Below, piece after piece: positions 3,546 to 19,549 of a stretch of 25,013 bases of DNA. Under the pieces are notes generated by a model. It saw only the letters and a program-made list of their open reading frames with translations. It was not told the DNA's origin and ran no database searches. Source of the DNA: a virus (taxonomy: Duplodnaviria; Heunggongvirae; Uroviricota; Caudoviricetes); the IMG/VR virus record IMGVR_UViG_3300045988_007239, positions 1 through 25,013 of that record. One strand, given 5' to 3'. Both the position numbers and the translations under genes were made by a program. Position 1 is the stretch's first letter. Every line of letters starts with the position of its first letter.

Positions 3546-3874
3546 TACTCACCCCCATTGCCGTACAGGGTTTCAGCCGCTGATTTTTCTACATCCCCGG
3601 AAACAGGAGCGATCGCCATATCAGTGATCTGCAGATCGGCGCTGCGATTAACACCATCGTCAGTTTCTCTGGCAGACAGGCCTCGAATAACAGCTTTTGC
3701 AGTTATCATCACTTCTGTTCCGACGCCCTGAGGTTGCGCCTTCAGCTTATTCAATGTGTCGTTATTAAGAGTGATGCACAGCCCCCACGGGTATTCATCG
3801 CGAGTTCTGGTTTCTCCGCTCTCATCCTGGTAGCTGTCAGTGCCGGTTTTGAGGTTTACGAGTTCCATATACAC
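3545..3874 (-). CDS. hypothetical structural protein
   Basis: 109-aa ORF in the structural operon; GGAG-like RBS just downstream of the 3881-3902 hairpin. Confidence 0.5.
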   Translation of the reverse strand: MYMELVNLKTGTDSYQDESGETRTRDEYPWGLCITLNNDTLNKLKAQPQGVGTEVMITAKAVIRGLSARETDDGVNRSADLQITDMAIAPVSGDVEKSAAETLYGNGGE

Positions 3875-6456: not shown

Positions 6457-6749
6457 TCCTGTTCACTGGCCTCTTTGGCCATCTTCAAATACTGTTCAGG
6501 GCAATGCGCCATAACGCGCTGAAACAGTTCCAGCGCCAGATTGCGTTGCCCCTCATTAAATGCCATTGCCATAGCATCCATCGGAGAGATAGCGGAAAAC
6601 ACCCGGCCTTTCTCCAGCACCGACCAGACAACGCGACGCCCCTGTTCACTGCTCATGACAAAGCGAATGTCATCAATTTCACGCTGTGCCATGTCACGTT
6701 GCTTACGGGCGTTTTCTTCTTTCAGTTGATCGTCTTCGTAATCTGTCAT
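6453..6749 (-). CDS. hypothetical protein (head assembly module)
   Basis: 98-aa ORF; overlaps portal stop and scaffold start by 4 nt each. Confidence 0.6.
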   Translation of the reverse strand: MTDYEDDQLKEENARKQRDMAQREIDDIRFVMSSEQGRRVVWSVLEKGRVFSAISPMDAMAMAFNEGQRNLALELFQRVMAHCPEQYLKMAKEASEQE

Positions 6750-8425
6750 TGTGATTGCCCACCCTGACCACTAAATGCATTCGCCATAGCTGACAAAACA
6801 CTCGGATCCGAAGTTTTAGCTTCGCTTAGCGTCTTGGCACCCTGTGCCGCCGCCATCCCCATCGCCATCATTTGTTGCTGCTGTTGTTGCTGTGCCCGTT
6901 GCTGGCGAGCCTGCTCAACCTGTTCCTGCGGAACAATGACGGTTGGAGACACTCCGGACATATCAGCGAATGCATCGATCGCCTGATCAACGTTGAGTTT
7001 GTCGAGAGCTTCTGGTTTCGCTTGCGCAAGTTGACCAATGAAGTTGACCGTGGATGCCAGACTGGACAGGCCGATAGACTTCTGCGCCTGAGCCATGACG
7101 GAAATGTATTCGACCTTCAGGGGCATACCTTCCATCGCGTCAGGTGGTGGCGGCAGCATGTTTTTACGCACCATCATCGAGAAAGCGCGGTCAATGAGAG
7201 GATTAAGACATTCGTCGTTCAGACGCTCCAGAACCGGCCCCAACATCAGAAGTTTTTCTTCTTTCATTTCGATCACCGCTTCAACAGGCATCGAGCGGGT
7301 ATTGATGTTCTGCAACATCATGAACAGATCGACAAAGTAGGCGCTGTTAATGATTTGACGAGTGTCCTGAATGTCTGCCACCAAATCTGCTGTACTGGGG
7401 TTAACCAGATAAGCAGGCCTGAAACTATCCTGACCAGTAATCTGATCGATATACGTGATGTCGCCAGGAAGAAGGGAGGCACGCTGATTCTTGAGGGAAG
7501 TCGGAGCAATCATCGGCGGATTGGTGGCTTTATCAATCAACTGCGACTTGCGCTTCTGGAGAAGCTGCAATGCCTTAACAGGTCCAAGCGCCAGCATACC
7601 CGGGCATGATGATCCATAAACATCTTCGCCGTTAACTTCCCAGCGCGGAGCCATAATTGGAAACTCATCGAATCCGGACTCACGCAACAACTTGTCGTTA
7701 TCGCCACCAACCTCGTAATAAACCGATTTGAATGGCTTGTTCTTGCTATCCAGCTTCGATGTATCGCGGTCAATGTTCGGGTAAACCGAATGCATCACCT
7801 CAATCCACTTCTCGTAGGTGCCGCTTTCCCACATGCTTTTTACGGATTCGCTGACGTTATTTAGCCCGAACTCCTGAACAAGCTGACGAACAGTCATAGA
7901 GAACTTGCGAAAACATGTGTCCACACTGCCACGAGGTGAGTTAGCCAGGTAGTAACTGCCTATCGGGAATGGCATTGTGCGAATGATGTCCTCGTCATCC
8001 TCCAGTACTGCCATTGCACCAGTGCTGTATGTGCCGAGGCTTCCGTATAACTGCGGCAGCGACTGATAGAGATTCGACTTATTGAACATATCGTTCATGC
8101 GGTTCTGCACCGCCTCAAGCCACAACTTAACAGGGCCATAATCCATCATTTCAGGATCTGGCGTAGCCAGGCGAAACCACGGACGCGCGGGGCTTGTGAT
8201 GCCTGACATCATGCCGCTGGCGAGAGTGCGCGCCGCCATAGTCCCGGTCGAATCAATAATGCGTGTATTGCGTCGATCGTTACGGTTGACCTCAGAAGTC
8301 AGAAAGCGGGAACCACGCGGGTTGATGTAATCACTCAACTCGCGCCAGTGCGGATCGAACGACTGACGCTCGCTTTCAAGTTGTGCGAACTGTTTGTTCA
8401 ATCGCTCTTTAGTTGTTTCCGCCAT
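6746..8425 (-). CDS. portal protein (T7 gp8-like head-to-tail connector)
   Basis: 559 aa, first large gene of the head module; Gln-rich C-terminus (QQRAQQQQQQQMMAMGMAAAQG) resembles the C-terminus of T7-type connectors (from memory). Confidence 0.8.
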   Translation of the reverse strand: MAETTKERLNKQFAQLESERQSFDPHWRELSDYINPRGSRFLTSEVNRNDRRNTRIIDSTGTMAARTLASGMMSGITSPARPWFRLATPDPEMMDYGPVKLWLEAVQNRMNDMFNKSNLYQSLPQLYGSLGTYSTGAMAVLEDDEDIIRTMPFPIGSYYLANSPRGSVDTCFRKFSMTVRQLVQEFGLNNVSESVKSMWESGTYEKWIEVMHSVYPNIDRDTSKLDSKNKPFKSVYYEVGGDNDKLLRESGFDEFPIMAPRWEVNGEDVYGSSCPGMLALGPVKALQLLQKRKSQLIDKATNPPMIAPTSLKNQRASLLPGDITYIDQITGQDSFRPAYLVNPSTADLVADIQDTRQIINSAYFVDLFMMLQNINTRSMPVEAVIEMKEEKLLMLGPVLERLNDECLNPLIDRAFSMMVRKNMLPPPPDAMEGMPLKVEYISVMAQAQKSIGLSSLASTVNFIGQLAQAKPEALDKLNVDQAIDAFADMSGVSPTVIVPQEQVEQARQQRAQQQQQQQMMAMGMAAAQGAKTLSEAKTSDPSVLSAMANAFSGQGGQSQ

Positions 8426-8714: not shown

Positions 8715-8751
8715 TTGACATTTAACGCATAAATTATTACCTTTTGGGTAA
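8715..8751 (+). promoter_or_regulatory. promoter-operator module driving the tRNA insert
   Basis: TTGACA (8715-8720) followed by perfect TTACC-ttttg-GGTAA (8737-8751); the stretch acgcataaattattacc nearly duplicates the pL-like promoter at 19351-19367. Confidence 0.45.
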
Positions 8752-9073
8752 CCAAAGAGTTCATTCCGGTTACTAACCTGACTGGCTTGTCGTTAAATTG
8801 AACAGGTGGAGTGAGCTTTTATTTTGAGCAGTACGGCGTATGGCACATGCGCCGATAGCGGTCTGGATACGTTTAAGGGGCACCCTCCCTTGCTCGGGCA
8901 AACGAACCAGGTAGCCGGAATGTGCAAGTCGAGCGGTTTTATTCCGCGCACGGGGATTCACCATCCCGGCGATTCGGTGTGACACCTCGGAAGAGACGAG
9001 GGTACAACGATGAGAGCATTTATGGAGCCGCGACAAAGTGTGGTGCCTTAACAGGCTAAGTGCTCTCAGCGTT

Positions 9074-9150
9074 GTGGCATTAGCTCAGTTGGACAGAGCA
9101 ACCGCCTTCTAAGCGGTTGGTCGCAGGTTCGAATCCTGCATGCCGCGCCA
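9074..9150 (+). tRNA. tRNA-Arg (anticodon UCU)
   Basis: 77-nt cloverleaf folded by hand: acceptor gtggcat/atgccgc (one G-U), D-arm gctc..gagc, anticodon stem accgc/gcggt with loop cuUCUaa, T-arm gcagg-ttcgaat-cctgc, encoded CCA end. Confidence 0.9.
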
Positions 9151-9193: not shown

Positions 9194-9235
9194 GGCGGTG
9201 ATGGTTTCCTTTGAAGGACTATCACCGCCCTTTTT
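9194..9235 (+). terminator. intrinsic terminator after tRNA
   Basis: 9-bp stem GGCGGTGAT/ATCACCGCC (9194-9202 / 9221-9229) followed by TTTTT. Confidence 0.6.
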
Positions 9236-9313
9236 ACAGCATGACGCCATTGCGATGACTTCATGCTGTAAACCCGTACAGCCACGGAAGGCATAACTCA
9301 TTGCTTCCAGTTC

Positions 9314-9336
9314 GCCCGGTTCGCCGGGCTTTTTTT
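9314..9336 (+). terminator. intrinsic terminator
   Basis: GCCCGG-ttcg-CCGGGC stem followed by 7 T; ends 11 nt before the ATG of the 118-aa ORF. Confidence 0.7.
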
Positions 9337-9347
9337 AAGGTGAGATT

Positions 9348-9704
9348 ATGAACGACCAGCAAATCGAAAAAGAAATCGTTGAGAAAGGCAAAACGGCACC
9401 GCGAGTTACGCCTCAATATATCGAAAGCATCATTCTTGAAGAGCATTTCTTTACTGCTTATGACGGCATTCGTGCCGCCAATATGGGCGTTGGCGATTCA
9501 TGGACAGCGCATAAATCTACAGACCTCCTGACTTTCTGCGTACTGGTGCTGAAGAATGGCTTCACCGTCACCGGAGAGAGTACCTGTGCAAGTCCGGAAA
9601 ATTTTGATGCAGAAATTGGTCGGAAGATTGCCCGGCAGAATGCTGTAAACAAAATCTGGATGCTTGAAGGTTACTTGCTGAAGCAGAAGTTAAGCGAGCA
9701 ATAA
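9348..9704 (+). CDS. conserved phage protein of unknown function (possibly N4 gp49 / Sf6 gp66-like family)
   Basis: 118-aa ORF with AAGGTGAG RBS, on the opposite strand to flanking terminase and portal genes; family assignment from memory only. Confidence 0.7.
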   Translation: MNDQQIEKEIVEKGKTAPRVTPQYIESIILEEHFFTAYDGIRAANMGVGDSWTAHKSTDLLTFCVLVLKNGFTVTGESTCASPENFDAEIGRKIARQNAVNKIWMLEGYLLKQKLSEQ

Positions 9705-9720
9705 CACCGTGACATGTCAC

Positions 9721-9751
9721 AAACAGCCAGCTCATAGGCTGGCTTTGTTTT
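9721..9751. terminator. bidirectional terminator between insert ORF and terL
   Basis: AGCCAGC-tcatag-GCTGGCT stem, A-rich before and T-rich after; located where + and - strand genes converge. Confidence 0.5.
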
Positions 9752-9794
9752 ATCCTCACCAGAGGATATCAGCAGCATTATCCCCTCCAGCGGA

Positions 9795-11270
9795 TTAAGC
9801 ATAGGGATCGTAATCTGTGATGGCCTTGCCTTGCTGGTTCTGCTGCCCGGGAATTCGCAGACGCTTCGACACAGGGAACGCAAACGTCAGCAGTAGCGCA
9901 TCGCCTTTACCAGGAGAACGCCCAAGCCGCTCCTTGATATCTTCCTTCGGTTCGATAACGATTTTACCGTCCACGCGAACTTTGTACTCTGCCGCCGACA
10001 GGTCGTCCGCTGTTTCCTGGTCATCCAGCATGCCGCCCAGCCTCAGCCATGTCTTGCATGAGTTGAACATCTCCCCACGCTTGTTGAGCATCTGCGGGTC
10101 AGTAGACGCGCCACCGAACGGAACAAGTTGCCATGTGCGCCCCCAACCGTCACCGATTGACTTCAGCCCGGTACCGTAACCGAAGTCGATGAACACCGCG
10201 TCAGCCTGATACTGGTCTTCAAAGTCAGCGATACGCTTTGCCATAATCAGATCGTCAGTGGTCTTGTTGCCGGTCCACAGCACCTTACTGTGCAGCCCCT
10301 GCCGCAGGTATATCACCGCGTCATCAACACCGGAGTATGCAGGGTCAACGCCGATTATCACCGGAGCATGTGCCACCTGCGCAGCAGTTACCACCCGTTT
10401 CATTGCCTCGTCAGTAAGACCGGTAGGGATAAACTGCAATTCAGATGCATCAGGGAATATGCCGCGCACACGGATTTTAACGAAGTCGCTGTCTTCCCCG
10501 TAGTCATCAACCCATTTCTGCAACTGCTGTTTGTTGGTACCTTCCACCGTCCGACTGTCAATCTGCGCAGTTTTCCAGCGGTGTTTATACTTGCGGAAAC
10601 ATTCACGGAAACGTCCGGTATTACGCGTCGGGTTTCCGAACGCCACCCAGATAATCTCAGTGTCTTCGTCCGTTAGCGCACCTTCGGCAACTTCCCACAC
10701 CAGATCCGCAATGTTCGACGCTTCATCAAACACCACGATGATGCGTTTGCGCTCGTTGTGTAGTCCGGCGAATGCCTCAGTGTTGTGCTCAGACCAGGGG
10801 ATTGCGTCAGCTCGCCACCGCTTGTCGTGTCCAGGATCATTGCTGTACATCGCGGTAGCGGTACAGGTAAACCAGTCTTTCGTGATGGCAAGGTTCGACC
10901 ACTTGATAATTTCCGGCCAGGTCTTCGTTCGTAGCTGGTTGTCGGTGTTGGCGGTCACCACGACCTTACAATCCTCGCAAGTGGACATGCCCCAGTTGAT
11001 CAGCATTGAGATGAATGCGGATTTACCAATACCGTGACCAGAAGCGCGTGCCAGCATAAGCGGCTGATAGCGCGTCTCTGGATTCTGCAGGTGATCACGT
11101 ATCTCTCGGAACGCATCAGCCTGCCACTGACGTGGGCCAGTAGCATGTGCCAGTTCAGTCCCCTCTTCCCCCCACGGGAACGCATAGAGGGCATAACCAA
11201 GCGGATCGTGAGTAAACCCTGCAATATCCTCGATCAACTGCTCTTCAGGAGATAACACTGTATCTGTCAC
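9795..11270 (-). CDS. terL: terminase large subunit
   Basis: 491 aa; Walker A (ASGHGIGKS), Walker B-like IIVVFDEAS, C-terminal nuclease-like region; start overlaps small-subunit stop. Confidence 0.9.
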   Translation of the reverse strand: MTDTVLSPEEQLIEDIAGFTHDPLGYALYAFPWGEEGTELAHATGPRQWQADAFREIRDHLQNPETRYQPLMLARASGHGIGKSAFISMLINWGMSTCEDCKVVVTANTDNQLRTKTWPEIIKWSNLAITKDWFTCTATAMYSNDPGHDKRWRADAIPWSEHNTEAFAGLHNERKRIIVVFDEASNIADLVWEVAEGALTDEDTEIIWVAFGNPTRNTGRFRECFRKYKHRWKTAQIDSRTVEGTNKQQLQKWVDDYGEDSDFVKIRVRGIFPDASELQFIPTGLTDEAMKRVVTAAQVAHAPVIIGVDPAYSGVDDAVIYLRQGLHSKVLWTGNKTTDDLIMAKRIADFEDQYQADAVFIDFGYGTGLKSIGDGWGRTWQLVPFGGASTDPQMLNKRGEMFNSCKTWLRLGGMLDDQETADDLSAAEYKVRVDGKIVIEPKEDIKERLGRSPGKGDALLLTFAFPVSKRLRIPGQQNQQGKAITDYDPYA

Positions 11271-11863
11271 TGATTACCATCCTGACGTTCTTTGAGTCGC
11301 TTCCTGGCTGCTGCTATGCGATCAGCAATTGTCACATTCACATTAACATCCAGGCGTTCTTTGAATGCGTTGACGTCGACGTGCTTACCAATCAGTTCGA
11401 GGTTCTTCACCTTGTCAGGCCATTTAATTTTTTTGAGGATTGTCTCTATCGAATCCTCGTTCATGTTCATGATGGTCGATGACAGATCAAAGCCGCTAAG
11501 CGTAGTGCGCCAGATTTTCGGCCACTCGCGGATTGGTTTAAGGCTCCCATCGTCGTTGAGGATGTCGATCACGTCCATCTGGTCGATCTCCACCAGGCGC
11601 ATGAGAACGTAATCAGCACTGACGCGCATTCGTTTGTTGCGCTCCTCCATCAACTCGGCAATCCGTTTCTGAATGCGTTCATCGCGCATCATGACACTGG
11701 CTTTAACTGCCGCTGTATTTGGGGAGAATCCTGCGTTAATCGCTGCCTGAGTCTGGTTTTCAGGCGTTTTGATGTATGACTGGCAATAAGCCTCCTGCAT
11801 TGCAGTTAGTGGCTTAAATTGCGTTGATTTGCGTTTATAGGTTTTAGGTTCAGCAGGCATCAT
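11267..11863 (-). CDS. terS: terminase small subunit
   Basis: Directly upstream of and overlapping terL. Start set at the internal ATG-ATG (11863) with GGTGG RBS, because the 26 codons above it in the track ORF contain an operator palindrome. Confidence 0.75.
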   Translation of the reverse strand: MMPAEPKTYKRKSTQFKPLTAMQEAYCQSYIKTPENQTQAAINAGFSPNTAAVKASVMMRDERIQKRIAELMEERNKRMRVSADYVLMRLVEIDQMDVIDILNDDGSLKPIREWPKIWRTTLSGFDLSSTIMNMNEDSIETILKKIKWPDKVKNLELIGKHVDVNAFKERLDVNVNVTIADRIAAARKRLKERQDGNQ

Positions 11864-11880
11864 AACCACCGTGGTAATAG

Positions 11881-11895
11881 TTACCGTTGTGGTAA
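11881..11895. promoter_or_regulatory. operator-type palindrome upstream of terS
   Basis: Perfect TTACC-gttgt-GGTAA, flanked by GGTAAtag repeats, 18 nt upstream of the proposed terS start. Confidence 0.5.
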
Positions 11896-11981
11896 TAGTA
11901 CCATGCAAAATAAAGCCGCCATAGTTGGCGGCAGTATTCAAAACCCATCAAATTCATCATGCATAATCTACTCGTGACATT

Positions 11982-12320
11982 TCACACTATTAATTTCGTT
12001 TCATGCCAGCCTTTAGTCACCCAGCATTGCGAGTCACCATTACAAGGGCATGAATTAACTGGAACTCTCTCGCCGCACTTACCGCAACGTTTTCTGCTGA
12101 TCGATTTTATACGCCCGCGCACGCGTGCATCATCCTGGCGGATCAGTAACGCTATATACTCACCAAATTCGTAAGGCGCACGCCCGGGGCGACGCGTGGC
12201 ACAGTTACGCTCCAGCATTTCAATTTCCTGAGCATCAAGCACAATTTCCAGCTTACGCACACCAGATGCAGCTTGTCTTGCTCTCTGAGCGGCTTTGCGC
12301 TCTGCTGCTGATTTAGCCAT
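11982..12320 (-). CDS. hypothetical protein with basic N-terminus and C-terminal Cys-rich zinc-ribbon-like motif
   Basis: 112-aa ORF; C-x2-C ... C-x-C-x5-C cluster near C-terminus; lies just upstream of terS. Confidence 0.6.
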   Translation of the reverse strand: MAKSAAERKAAQRARQAASGVRKLEIVLDAQEIEMLERNCATRRPGRAPYEFGEYIALLIRQDDARVRGRIKSISRKRCGKCGERVPVNSCPCNGDSQCWVTKGWHETKLIV

Positions 12321-16238: not shown

Positions 16239-16313
16239 TTACCTCTAAGGTAATTAAAAACCACATAAGACACGAAATCAATAGAGTTTAGAATATTTTA
16301 TTACCTGATAGGT
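16239..16313. promoter_or_regulatory. two operator palindromes flanking a candidate promoter for the nin-like genes
   Basis: Perfect TTACC-tctaa-GGTAA (16239-16253) and TTACC-tgata-GGTAA (16299-16313); a TTGATT -35-like element lies between them on the - strand. Confidence 0.5.
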
Positions 16314-16352
16314 AATTGTTGAGGCGTAAAAAAATGCGCTATCGCGCTGGTA

Positions 16353-19288: not shown

Positions 19289-19300
19289 TTGCCTATTCGA

Positions 19301-19377
19301 TTACCTAATGGGTAATTTTTTTAACTCATATCTATTGACATCAAACCAGATACGCATAATTATTACCTCAACGGTAA
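19301..19377 (+). promoter_or_regulatory. pL-like promoter with two operators
   Basis: Perfect TTACC-taatg-GGTAA (19301-19315); TTGACA (19335-19340), 17-nt spacer, AATTAT; perfect TTACC-tcaac-GGTAA (19363-19377) at the predicted transcription start. Confidence 0.6.
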
Positions 19378-19396: not shown

Positions 19397-19549
19397 ATGC
19401 AGTGGAAAATCATCAACGGTTGGTACTGCGTTACTGCATGCGGATTCATGAGCTGGAAGTTCCGCACCTTACAGGAAGGCATTAAGTGGGCTTTCGTCAG
19501 CAAAGAAGCTCGCGATGTGGCCAACGATAACGAGATATGGGAGGGCTGA
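19397..19549 (+). CDS. small hydrophobic protein (50 aa), first gene of early-left operon
   Basis: Hand-translated MQWKIINGWYCVTACGFMSW...; GAGGT RBS 8 nt upstream; stop 2 nt before the next gene; below track cutoff. Confidence 0.35.
   Translation: MQWKIINGWYCVTACGFMSWKFRTLQEGIKWAFVSKEARDVANDNEIWEG

Follow-up and report, generated by a model that had tools for sequence, protein, structure and literature searches.

A dispersed 12-bp palindrome at module and cargo boundaries of phages as a candidate target of the PHROG 536 regulator

In T4-type phages, promoter-stem-loop cassettes form conserved flanks of cargo genes. In epsilon15-like genomes, CI-type operators (ATTACC-N5-GGTAAT) are dispersed palindromes that lie next to late operons. 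In the hotspots of P2 and P4 (PMC9122126), and at the annotated "boundary sequences" of Sf6, hypervariable accessory genes sit between core genes near packaging genes, and short conserved sequences occur at the mosaic junctions; palindromes, inverted repeats, and terminators are not mentioned for the hotspot edges in the paper on P2/P4. In the ArtA system of pSK41, one small protein is paired with a dyad site roughly 12 bp long, of which each replicon carries a few scattered copies; a single ArtA dimer can specify a 12-mer duplex (PMC2777438).

The locus described here shares these features of the CI operators, the P2/P4 and Sf6 junctions, and ArtA. The window, i.e., the whole stretch of DNA that was analyzed (25,013 nucleotides; IMG/VR record IMGVR_UViG_3300045988_007239), derives, to judge from its sequence, from a phiV10/epsilon15-like phage of the genus Uetakevirus. 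At positions 9709 to 9720, it carries the perfect 12-bp palindrome GTGACATGTCAC (site B; no strand assigned), which consists of two GTGAC half-sites around a 2-bp center. We somewhat favor the reading that this is one copy of a dispersed cis-acting site, a candidate target of the PHROG 536 regulator, located at boundaries between modules and cargo. The site is conserved, occurs in multiple copies at defined positions, and co-occurs exclusively with one gene; from conservation, copy number, position, and co-occurrence, we infer that the PHROG 536 protein encoded by this gene most likely binds it.

The palindrome and the cargo slot between terL and portal

Site B lies between the portal gene (6746 to 8425) and terL (9795 to 11270), both of which, like terS, are on the minus strand. 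The intervening stretch is on the plus strand and holds tRNA-Arg(TCT) (9074 to 9150), two hairpins, and a cargo open reading frame (ORF) of 118 aa (9348 to 9704) from the N4 Gp49/Sf6 gp66 family (Pfam PF13876, Phage_gp49_66; E = 1e-33). The ORF ends with TAA at 9702 to 9704 and is separated from the palindrome by a fixed spacer of 4 nt, CACC (9705 to 9708, plus strand). An initial annotation of the window had described a perfect 12-bp palindrome here after the 118-aa ORF, which we confirmed on the window sequence. Its distance of 5 nt after the stop codon holds for the start of the palindrome, which is 5 positions past the last stop base, with only four bases in between. Four nucleotides 3′ of the palindrome, the terminator scan found a hairpin (AGCCAGC..GCTGGCT) followed by TTGTTTT (9725 to 9751, plus strand; hairpin, 9725 to 9744), which also lies 3′ of terL on the opposite strand and is annotated as a terminator in phiV10. 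The terminator had been called bidirectional. The hairpin is indeed present, but the scan flagged it on the plus strand alone, and the minus-strand function, with GTTTGTGA as the tail, is only plausible and weaker.

To the left, the slot is flanked by a terminator hairpin, a T run (T7), and the ribosome-binding site AAGGTGAGATT directly before the ATG (9314 to 9347, plus strand). This flank (terminator, T run, and AAGGTGA-N4-ATG) is conserved ahead of very different ORFs in relatives. Between 9151 and 9336, after the tRNA gene, there are a terminator-like hairpin (9194 to 9229), an inverted repeat with 18-bp arms (9233 to 9272), and a strong terminator (9314 to 9329), the last only about 10 nt ahead of the cargo ribosome-binding site. 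No promoter for the cargo ORF was found in the window. On the other side of the slot, between the right-hand terminator and the terL stop codon, two direct repeats of the form TATCC-N8-GGAT(A/T) (9751 to 9768 and 9779 to 9796) are shared with E. coli-type relatives and not with epsilon15, SPN1S, and Tyrion; we take them to resemble a HipB-type operator (TATCC-N8-GGATA).

As the initial annotation had cautioned, a 12-bp palindrome is not negligible as a chance event. The window contains 3 perfect ones, compared with 6.6 ± 2.4 expected from 200 dinucleotide-preserving shuffles, and 3 matches to the motif at no more than two mismatches, compared with 1.1 expected, a number reached by 9 of 100 shuffles. 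Because the palindrome count is below expectation, the significance of the site has to come from comparison alone. To this end, we used the slots of phiV10, TL-2011b, phiv142-3, epsilon15, SPN1S, and Tyrion together with about 230 IMG/VR loci, which were fetched through terL and hence independently of the palindrome, so that the count is free of ascertainment bias. Conservation in related genomes, on which the initial annotation had made its interpretation depend, is extensive: of 168 distinct related slots, 134 carried GTGAC-NN-GTCAC no more than 1.5 kb from the terL stop codon, compared with an expectation of about 0.0015 per slot, although related loci are nonindependent observations and the independent evidence is recurrence in five backbones together with a control set. 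The site was found in 45 of the 58 slots in which the terL C terminus is less than 70% identical to that of the window. It was absent from 34 of the 168 slots (20%), and the slot copy is therefore dispensable.

We also ranked all 1,024 palindromes of the form H-NN-rc(H) for each locus set or genome. With 402 copies against a mean of 1.7, the GTGAC half-site came first in the related loci, and it ranked 1 or 2 in all complete genomes and locus sets tested that encode the regulator. These ranks bear on the simplest explanation, that of a chance palindrome hitchhiking in a conserved flank. Such an explanation would accommodate the lack of enrichment of 12-bp palindromes within the window, and close relatives are 99% identical to the window anyway. 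It is made barely tenable by the half-site ranks and by the retention of the site where flanks have diverged and in unrelated backbones.

The geometry of the slot is strict. A stop codon (TAA, TAG, or TGA) falls exactly at −7 to −5 of the palindrome in 114 of 117 distinct contexts, with CACC and CGCC as the commonest 4-nt spacers. Because whole-protein BLAST clustering of the slot ORFs was over-merged by shared upstream read-through, it was replaced by clustering of C-terminal and body segments. ORFs from 13 C-terminal families, along with an 8-codon mini-ORF, were found to end 4 nt before the palindrome. The earlier suggestion that the palindrome marks an insert boundary was thus borne out by at least 13 unrelated C termini ending at exactly this distance. 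Epsilon15, SPN1S, and Tyrion share an identical palindrome but not the cargo, the stem of the terminator, or the 4-nt spacer. Across clades, the terminator sequence diverges and the palindrome does not, and the distance from the palindrome to terL varies from 36 to 1161 nt among relatives. We also considered whether the palindrome belongs to the cargo. Sf6 gp66 has a different sequence 3′ of its stop codon, and matches to other Gp49 homologs from outside Uetakevirus end at or before the stop codon; both observations led us to reject this possibility. From these comparisons, we regard the palindrome as an element of the phage backbone and not as part of the inserted ORF.

Replacement in the slot proceeds precisely ORF for ORF: its left limit is a constant ribosome-binding site and ATG, and its right limit is a constant stop codon plus 4 nt (9314 to 9751 in the window; L005 to L238 among the relatives). 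Some relatives carry further ORFs between the slot terminator and terL. In about eight E. coli loci, a 1-kb insert with its own promoter eliminates the slot palindrome.

A location at junctions between conserved and variable DNA would suit a recombination anchor or cassette boundary, with the palindrome kept as a swap site or homology handle in the manner of a short linker or of attC. Besides the many unrelated ORFs that end at the site, one relative (L039) carries two tandem cassettes, each ending with a stop codon, 4 nt, and the palindrome. In TL-2011b-type phages, the left terminator is immediately followed by the variant GTGATACGTCAC, and the insert lies on the other side of this variant. 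Epsilon15 encodes RecT-like and RecE-like proteins, phiV10 encodes a RecE/RecT fusion, and enzymes of the RecE/RecT type can use short homologies. However, a 12-bp stretch is very short for homologous recombination, no copy marks the cassette on its left boundary, and the cassette junction in L039, where the right and left terminators form a hybrid, lies inside the hairpins and not in the palindrome. A six-frame ORF blastp profile revealed no recombinase common to the five genomes, and the only gene they have in common encodes a 112-aa protein without a recognizable catalytic domain. The recombination core proposed in the initial annotation thus found no support, and we consider a recombination anchor of any kind unlikely. 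The palindrome was also rejected as an attP core: the Uetakevirus core, attgagtgggaatgatt (PMC9782041), is unrelated to it, and the integrase that is present is solely of the lambda/P4 type, with an unrelated attP core.

Further copies at operon ends in Uetakeviruses

The palindrome is a multicopy element, a point that the initial annotation had missed. A second copy in the window, GTGACATTTCAC at 11974 to 11985 (site A; no strand assigned), has one mismatch and lies upstream of terS. It overlaps the TGA stop codon (11984 to 11982) of the last early gene, which encodes the basic, Cys-rich protein of 112 aa (11982 to 12320, minus strand) that matches PHROG 536, "transcriptional regulator" (E = 1.6e-54). 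At this position, some 2.18 kb past the stop codon of terL, GTGAC-NN-GTCAC occurs in 199 of 208 distinct relatives, in 178 of them as the perfect GTGACATGTCAC. In the window, site A is followed on the minus strand by a terminator (GCCGCC..GGCGGC plus TTTATTTT; 11907 to 11932, hairpin 11915 to 11932), which precedes a CI-type operator (ATTACC-N5-GGTAAT; 11880 to 11896) and terS. Downstream of site A, relatives have the terminator directly, a mini-ORF, cassettes of a ribosome-binding site and ORF, or LexA-box promoter cassettes. The site A position is likewise a cargo hotspot. Its variable inserts begin right after the palindrome, as would be expected of a recombination anchor. In some relatives (e.g., L088, L100, and L211 to L220), the cassette directly after site A has a strong promoter (TTGACT-17-TATACT) overlapped by a LexA-box-like sequence (TACTGT-N8-ACAGTA), and such cargo, located upstream of terS, would be under SOS control.

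An 8-codon mini-ORF, M(H/K)(D/Y)EFD(G/R)F*, adjoins the palindrome at both sites. In the window, it reads MHDEFDGF* and lies 3′ of site A (11938 to 11964, minus strand), between the palindrome and the terminator and 5 nt before the latter. In the slot of epsilon15 (L086, about 3585 to 3611) and of phiv142-3 (L003, about 2451 to 2477), it precedes the palindrome by 4 nt, and in epsilon15 it overlaps the Gp49 stop codon (ATGA). The mini-ORF may be a relic of a cargo C terminus (...AINAAFDKITF*) or a leader peptide. The same region bears on the start of terS. The TTG at 11941, called by the ORF finder and in the phiV10 annotation, is probably wrong because 11864 to 11973 holds the mini-ORF, the terminator, and the CI-type operator; the ATG at 11863 or 11860 (MMPAEPK) is the likely start, as in epsilon15.

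Complete genomes extend this pattern. Epsilon15 has exactly three perfect copies, at 2142 (the slot), 19517, and 39612 (the gp49 stop); the copy at 19517 has the gp18 stop codon inside it and is 2 nt before the terminator that closes the virion operon. SPN1S has the same three perfect copies and, across the Rz stop codon, a further copy with one mismatch; phiV10 has two perfect copies and one with a single mismatch. All copies in these three phages are at operon ends. In epsilon15/phiV10-like phages, they follow or overlap the last stop codon, and next comes either inserted cargo or, after 1 to 22 nt, an intrinsic terminator.

A further one-mismatch copy, GTGCCATGTCAC, lies at 6686 to 6697 of the window, inside the late gene just downstream of the portal gene. 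In phiV10, the homologous gene p08 contains this same sequence on the opposite strand, and the copy looks like coding-sequence conservation and not a site.

The palindrome differs in both sequence and spacing from the CI-type operators, the motif of the repressor sites annotated in epsilon15. The initial annotation was therefore correct in calling it unrelated to the operator motif. The window has roughly 10 occurrences of ATTACC-N5-GGTAAT (e.g., 8736 to 8752, 11880 to 11896, 16300 to 16316, and 19300 to 19316), in some cases ahead of the portal and terS operons. This spread suggests that late operons may be under direct repressor control, as annotated in epsilon15.

Sequence variation among copies allowed us to weigh a DNA site against an RNA element. 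The arms GTGAC and GTCAC are invariant, and the central 2 nt vary within and between lineages (AT, AC, CT, AG, GT, TG, and GC). No compensatory changes were seen in the arms across the lineages compared. Invariant arms around a variable center fit two protein-contacted half-sites on duplex DNA and are the opposite of what is expected of structured RNA. The RNA alternative is that GUGACAUGUCAC acts in the 3′ untranslated region, as a hairpin or as a site for a protein or RNase, and modulates termination, read-through, or mRNA stability. It draws on the constant order in Uetakeviruses (last ORF stop, palindrome, terminator), on a stop codon at a fixed distance or inside the motif, such that a terminating ribosome would cover it, and on the arginine-rich N-terminal helix of the 112-aa protein. 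However, the hairpin is marginal (a stem of 4 bp, −1.2 kcal/mol for the palindrome alone), its loop varies while the stem is invariant and without covariation, an RNA site does not need a perfect DNA dyad, and the copies in Vibrio phage K233 and in P2-like phages lie upstream of genes or promoters without an adjacent terminator. An Rfam search of the window returned only the tRNA-Arg and no family matching the palindrome. We regard an RNA-level element as very unlikely, and the lack of covariation, the variable center, and the Rfam result also led us to reject a hairpin of the boxB/nut type. The palindrome was likewise rejected as an intrinsic terminator: its stem is weak and no T run follows it, and the real terminator is the separate hairpin at 9725 to 9744.

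A promoter at the palindrome was also considered. GTGACA could serve as a −35 element, and epsilon15 site A has TAAATT 17 nt later; in P2-like phages and some cargo variants at site A, promoter-like elements occur 5 to 40 nt after the site. A scan for sigma-70-like promoters found none at either copy in the window, and the downstream sequence is unconserved; a promoter at the window copies is thus doubtful.

Because copies flank terS-terL, one a short way upstream of terS (in Uetakeviruses and K233) and another shortly downstream of terL, the palindrome could be a packaging (pac) or terminase-recognition site. Against this stand the 3 to 4 copies per genome, one of them about 17 kb away at the end of the tail/virion operon, and the absence of the slot copy from 20% of relatives. 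The copies in ZF40 and N15 are moreover far from terminase genes, and N15 uses cos ends. We give the packaging explanation only a slim chance.

Recurrence with PHROG 536 in unrelated phages

Members of PHROG 536 include epsilon15 gp49, phiV10 p55, N15 gp46, and ZF40 gp22. Homologs are encoded by the Pectobacterium myovirus ZF40, the linear-plasmid siphovirus N15 and phiKO2, Yersinia P2-like phages, and phages of Vibrio and Aeromonas. The site recurs in these backbones. ZF40 has three perfect copies of GTGACATGTCAC (about 0.05 expected), one of them 2 nt after the gp22 stop, and N15 has three copies of GTGACnnGTCAC (about 0.04 expected), one of which overlaps the gene 46 stop. Among 44 N15-like loci, GTGAC-NN-GTCAC occurs 94 times (0.75 expected), and all 44 have a copy at the stop codon of the regulator gene. 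The 60 Yersinia-type P2-like loci have 56 copies (1.04 expected), located 0.5 to 4.5 kb downstream of the regulator gene, and the Vibrio locus K233 (23.7 kb) has three (about 0.02 expected), one of them 19 nt before terS. The Yersinia phage itself has one copy plus a one-mismatch copy. Complete genomes of Uetakeviruses, ZF40, and N15 each contain two to four copies, compared with about 0.04 expected. In the N15-like loci (L244 to L292), a second palindrome, CGACC-NN-GGTCG, is also overrepresented, with 182 copies in 44 loci and 4 in N15.

A negative control came from 79 loci with a lambda terminase (1.43 Mb), which contain 2 sites where 1.4 are expected by chance. Both sites are at the stop codon of a regulator homolog, i.e., in the two loci of the set that have the gene (2/2), and the 77 loci without the gene have none. 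Lambda itself has neither a gp49 homolog nor a GTGAC-NN-GTCAC site. When all six-frame ORFs of epsilon15 of at least 40 aa were compared by blastp with ZF40, N15, the Yersinia phage, and K233, gp49 alone matched at least two of them, and it matched all four. The initial annotation had offered a binding site for another factor as one of its readings; through co-occurrence with one small protein in five lineages, a binding site is now the best-supported reading.

The position of the site differs among backbones. In Yersinia-type P2-like phages, it lies between gene A and the portal gene Q, next to accessory genes. The perfect copy is at the edge of a hypervariable region, with 5 flank clusters on its left compared with 24 on its right, an asymmetry that would suit a recombination anchor. 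Imperfect extra copies lie 21 to 33 bp away in the P2-like phages and L144, roughly two to three helical turns, and the P2-like arrangement looks like an operator array in front of cargo. Some of the copies in ZF40 and N15 are intragenic, which speaks against a recombination anchor, as does arm conservation across lineages that is stricter than a homology handle needs.

The label "regulator" comes solely from PHROGs; homologs are named hypothetical in databases, except that RefSeq gives "transcriptional regulator" for ZF40 gp22. Searches of the 112-aa protein against Pfam, NCBIfam, and PDB, by sequence or profile, yielded no assignment. The NCBIfam search gave a weak, below-cutoff match to a LexA-regulated protein family (E = 0.052), which we take to be CopG-like, and alignment to the ribbon-helix-helix protein CopG with hhalign gave little indication of a relationship (probability, 0.3). 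An AlphaFold2 model was poor (mean pLDDT, 58.7), with helices at 30 to 42 and 52 to 67. Four conserved cysteines (C40, C79, C82, and C99) suggest a possible metal site. A profile search for homologs of PHROG 536 gave no more diverse alignment. A "gp46" in the proteome of a Klebsiella telomere-phage lysogen (PMC12042878) was set aside because it could not be tied to N15 gene 46.

Across these phages, the PHROG 536 protein diverges to about 31 to 38% identity while the GTGAC half-site is unchanged. Such constancy is unexpected, though possible for a coevolving pair, and it is the main attraction of the idea that a host factor conserved among gammaproteobacteria binds the site in place of the phage protein. 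Phages of Escherichia, Salmonella, Enterobacter, Pectobacterium, Yersinia, and Vibrio all share one and the same half-site. However, the site tracks the phage gene even among lambda-type phages of the same hosts, as the control set demonstrates. The CRP consensus is TGTGA-N6-TCACA and that of FNR is TTGAT-N4-ATCAA; the palindrome reads GTGA-N4-TCAC, and its arms are unlike either. We know of no E. coli regulator consensus that matches GTGAC-N2-GTCAC. A host factor is thus highly improbable.

Proposed role and comparison with known systems

Under the reading that we favor, the site has the consensus GTGAC-N2-GTCAC and the PHROG 536 protein probably binds it as a dimer, with one subunit per GTGAC arm. 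More tentatively, the bound protein could serve as a boundary element, a roadblock or insulator that limits read-through between modules and cargo. It could alternatively repress cargo promoters, as the operator-like arrays of the P2-like phages might indicate; this too is tentative. We favor the boundary role because all Uetakevirus copies end transcription units, beside terminators and at cargo junctions. Equally tentatively, the invariant 12 bp together with the terminator might incidentally provide a homology anchor for the exchange of cargo ORFs between phages. Several observations count against a regulator-binding site: the 3′ end of an operon is an unusual place for an operator, the half-site stays constant although the protein diverges, some copies in ZF40 and N15 are intragenic, 34 of the 168 slots have no copy, the searches for a fold of the protein were negative or weak, and site A of the window itself has a mismatch.

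A bolder version holds that the site and the Cys-rich protein form a portable module-boundary system of podo-, sipho-, and myoviruses, one that both insulates the ends of transcription units and guides cassette exchange. We consider this distinctly unlikely. If true, the "linker sequences" that the modular theory of phage evolution postulates would have a physical counterpart in this system, which would also account for the exact 4-nt distance between the site and the ends of unrelated ORFs. Should the pairing of protein and site hold, it would provide a DNA target and a first functional handle for PHROG 536, whose members are called hypothetical in databases and range over prophages of Escherichia, Salmonella, Klebsiella, Yersinia, Pectobacterium, Vibrio, and Aeromonas. 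The pairing would also supply a sequence landmark for accessory-gene slots (candidate defense, anti-defense, and exclusion genes) in several phage families, and it would make testable the question of whether phage mosaic boundaries arise purely from selection or are aided by specific sites.

In the literature searched, GTGACATGTCAC was not found. The variant strings and the shorter core TGACATGTCA gave few matches, none of which concerned phage regulation, the nearest being the paper on ArtA. Within the reach of these searches, neither the site nor its association with the protein has been described before.

How far the resemblance to known systems extends can be judged feature by feature. Lambda-type nut/boxB or Q elements are also short sites tied to termination control, with a regulator gene immediately upstream of the late genes. 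They differ in that the pattern of variation here opposes an RNA hairpin, no promoter was found at the copies in the window, and ZF40 and N15 have separate Q-like proteins. Integron attC sites likewise terminate promoterless ORF cassettes with a palindromic element, and the tandem cassettes of L039 add to the likeness. In contrast to attC, which spans tens of base pairs, the site here is 12 bp; it is accompanied by no integron integrase, and the cassette junction is in the terminator and not in the palindrome. The CI operators of the same genomes differ from the GTGAC sites in sequence, spacing, and positions: they front operons, whereas the GTGAC sites end them. ArtA is a parallel in site size, copy number, and pairing with one small protein, but the candidate binding protein here has neither a ribbon-helix-helix nor another known fold that could be detected, and the Uetakevirus copies lie over stop codons at operon 3′ ends and not in promoters. 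Finally, the locus departs from the P2/P4 hotspots in pairing one particular 12-bp site with one particular protein throughout several phage families.
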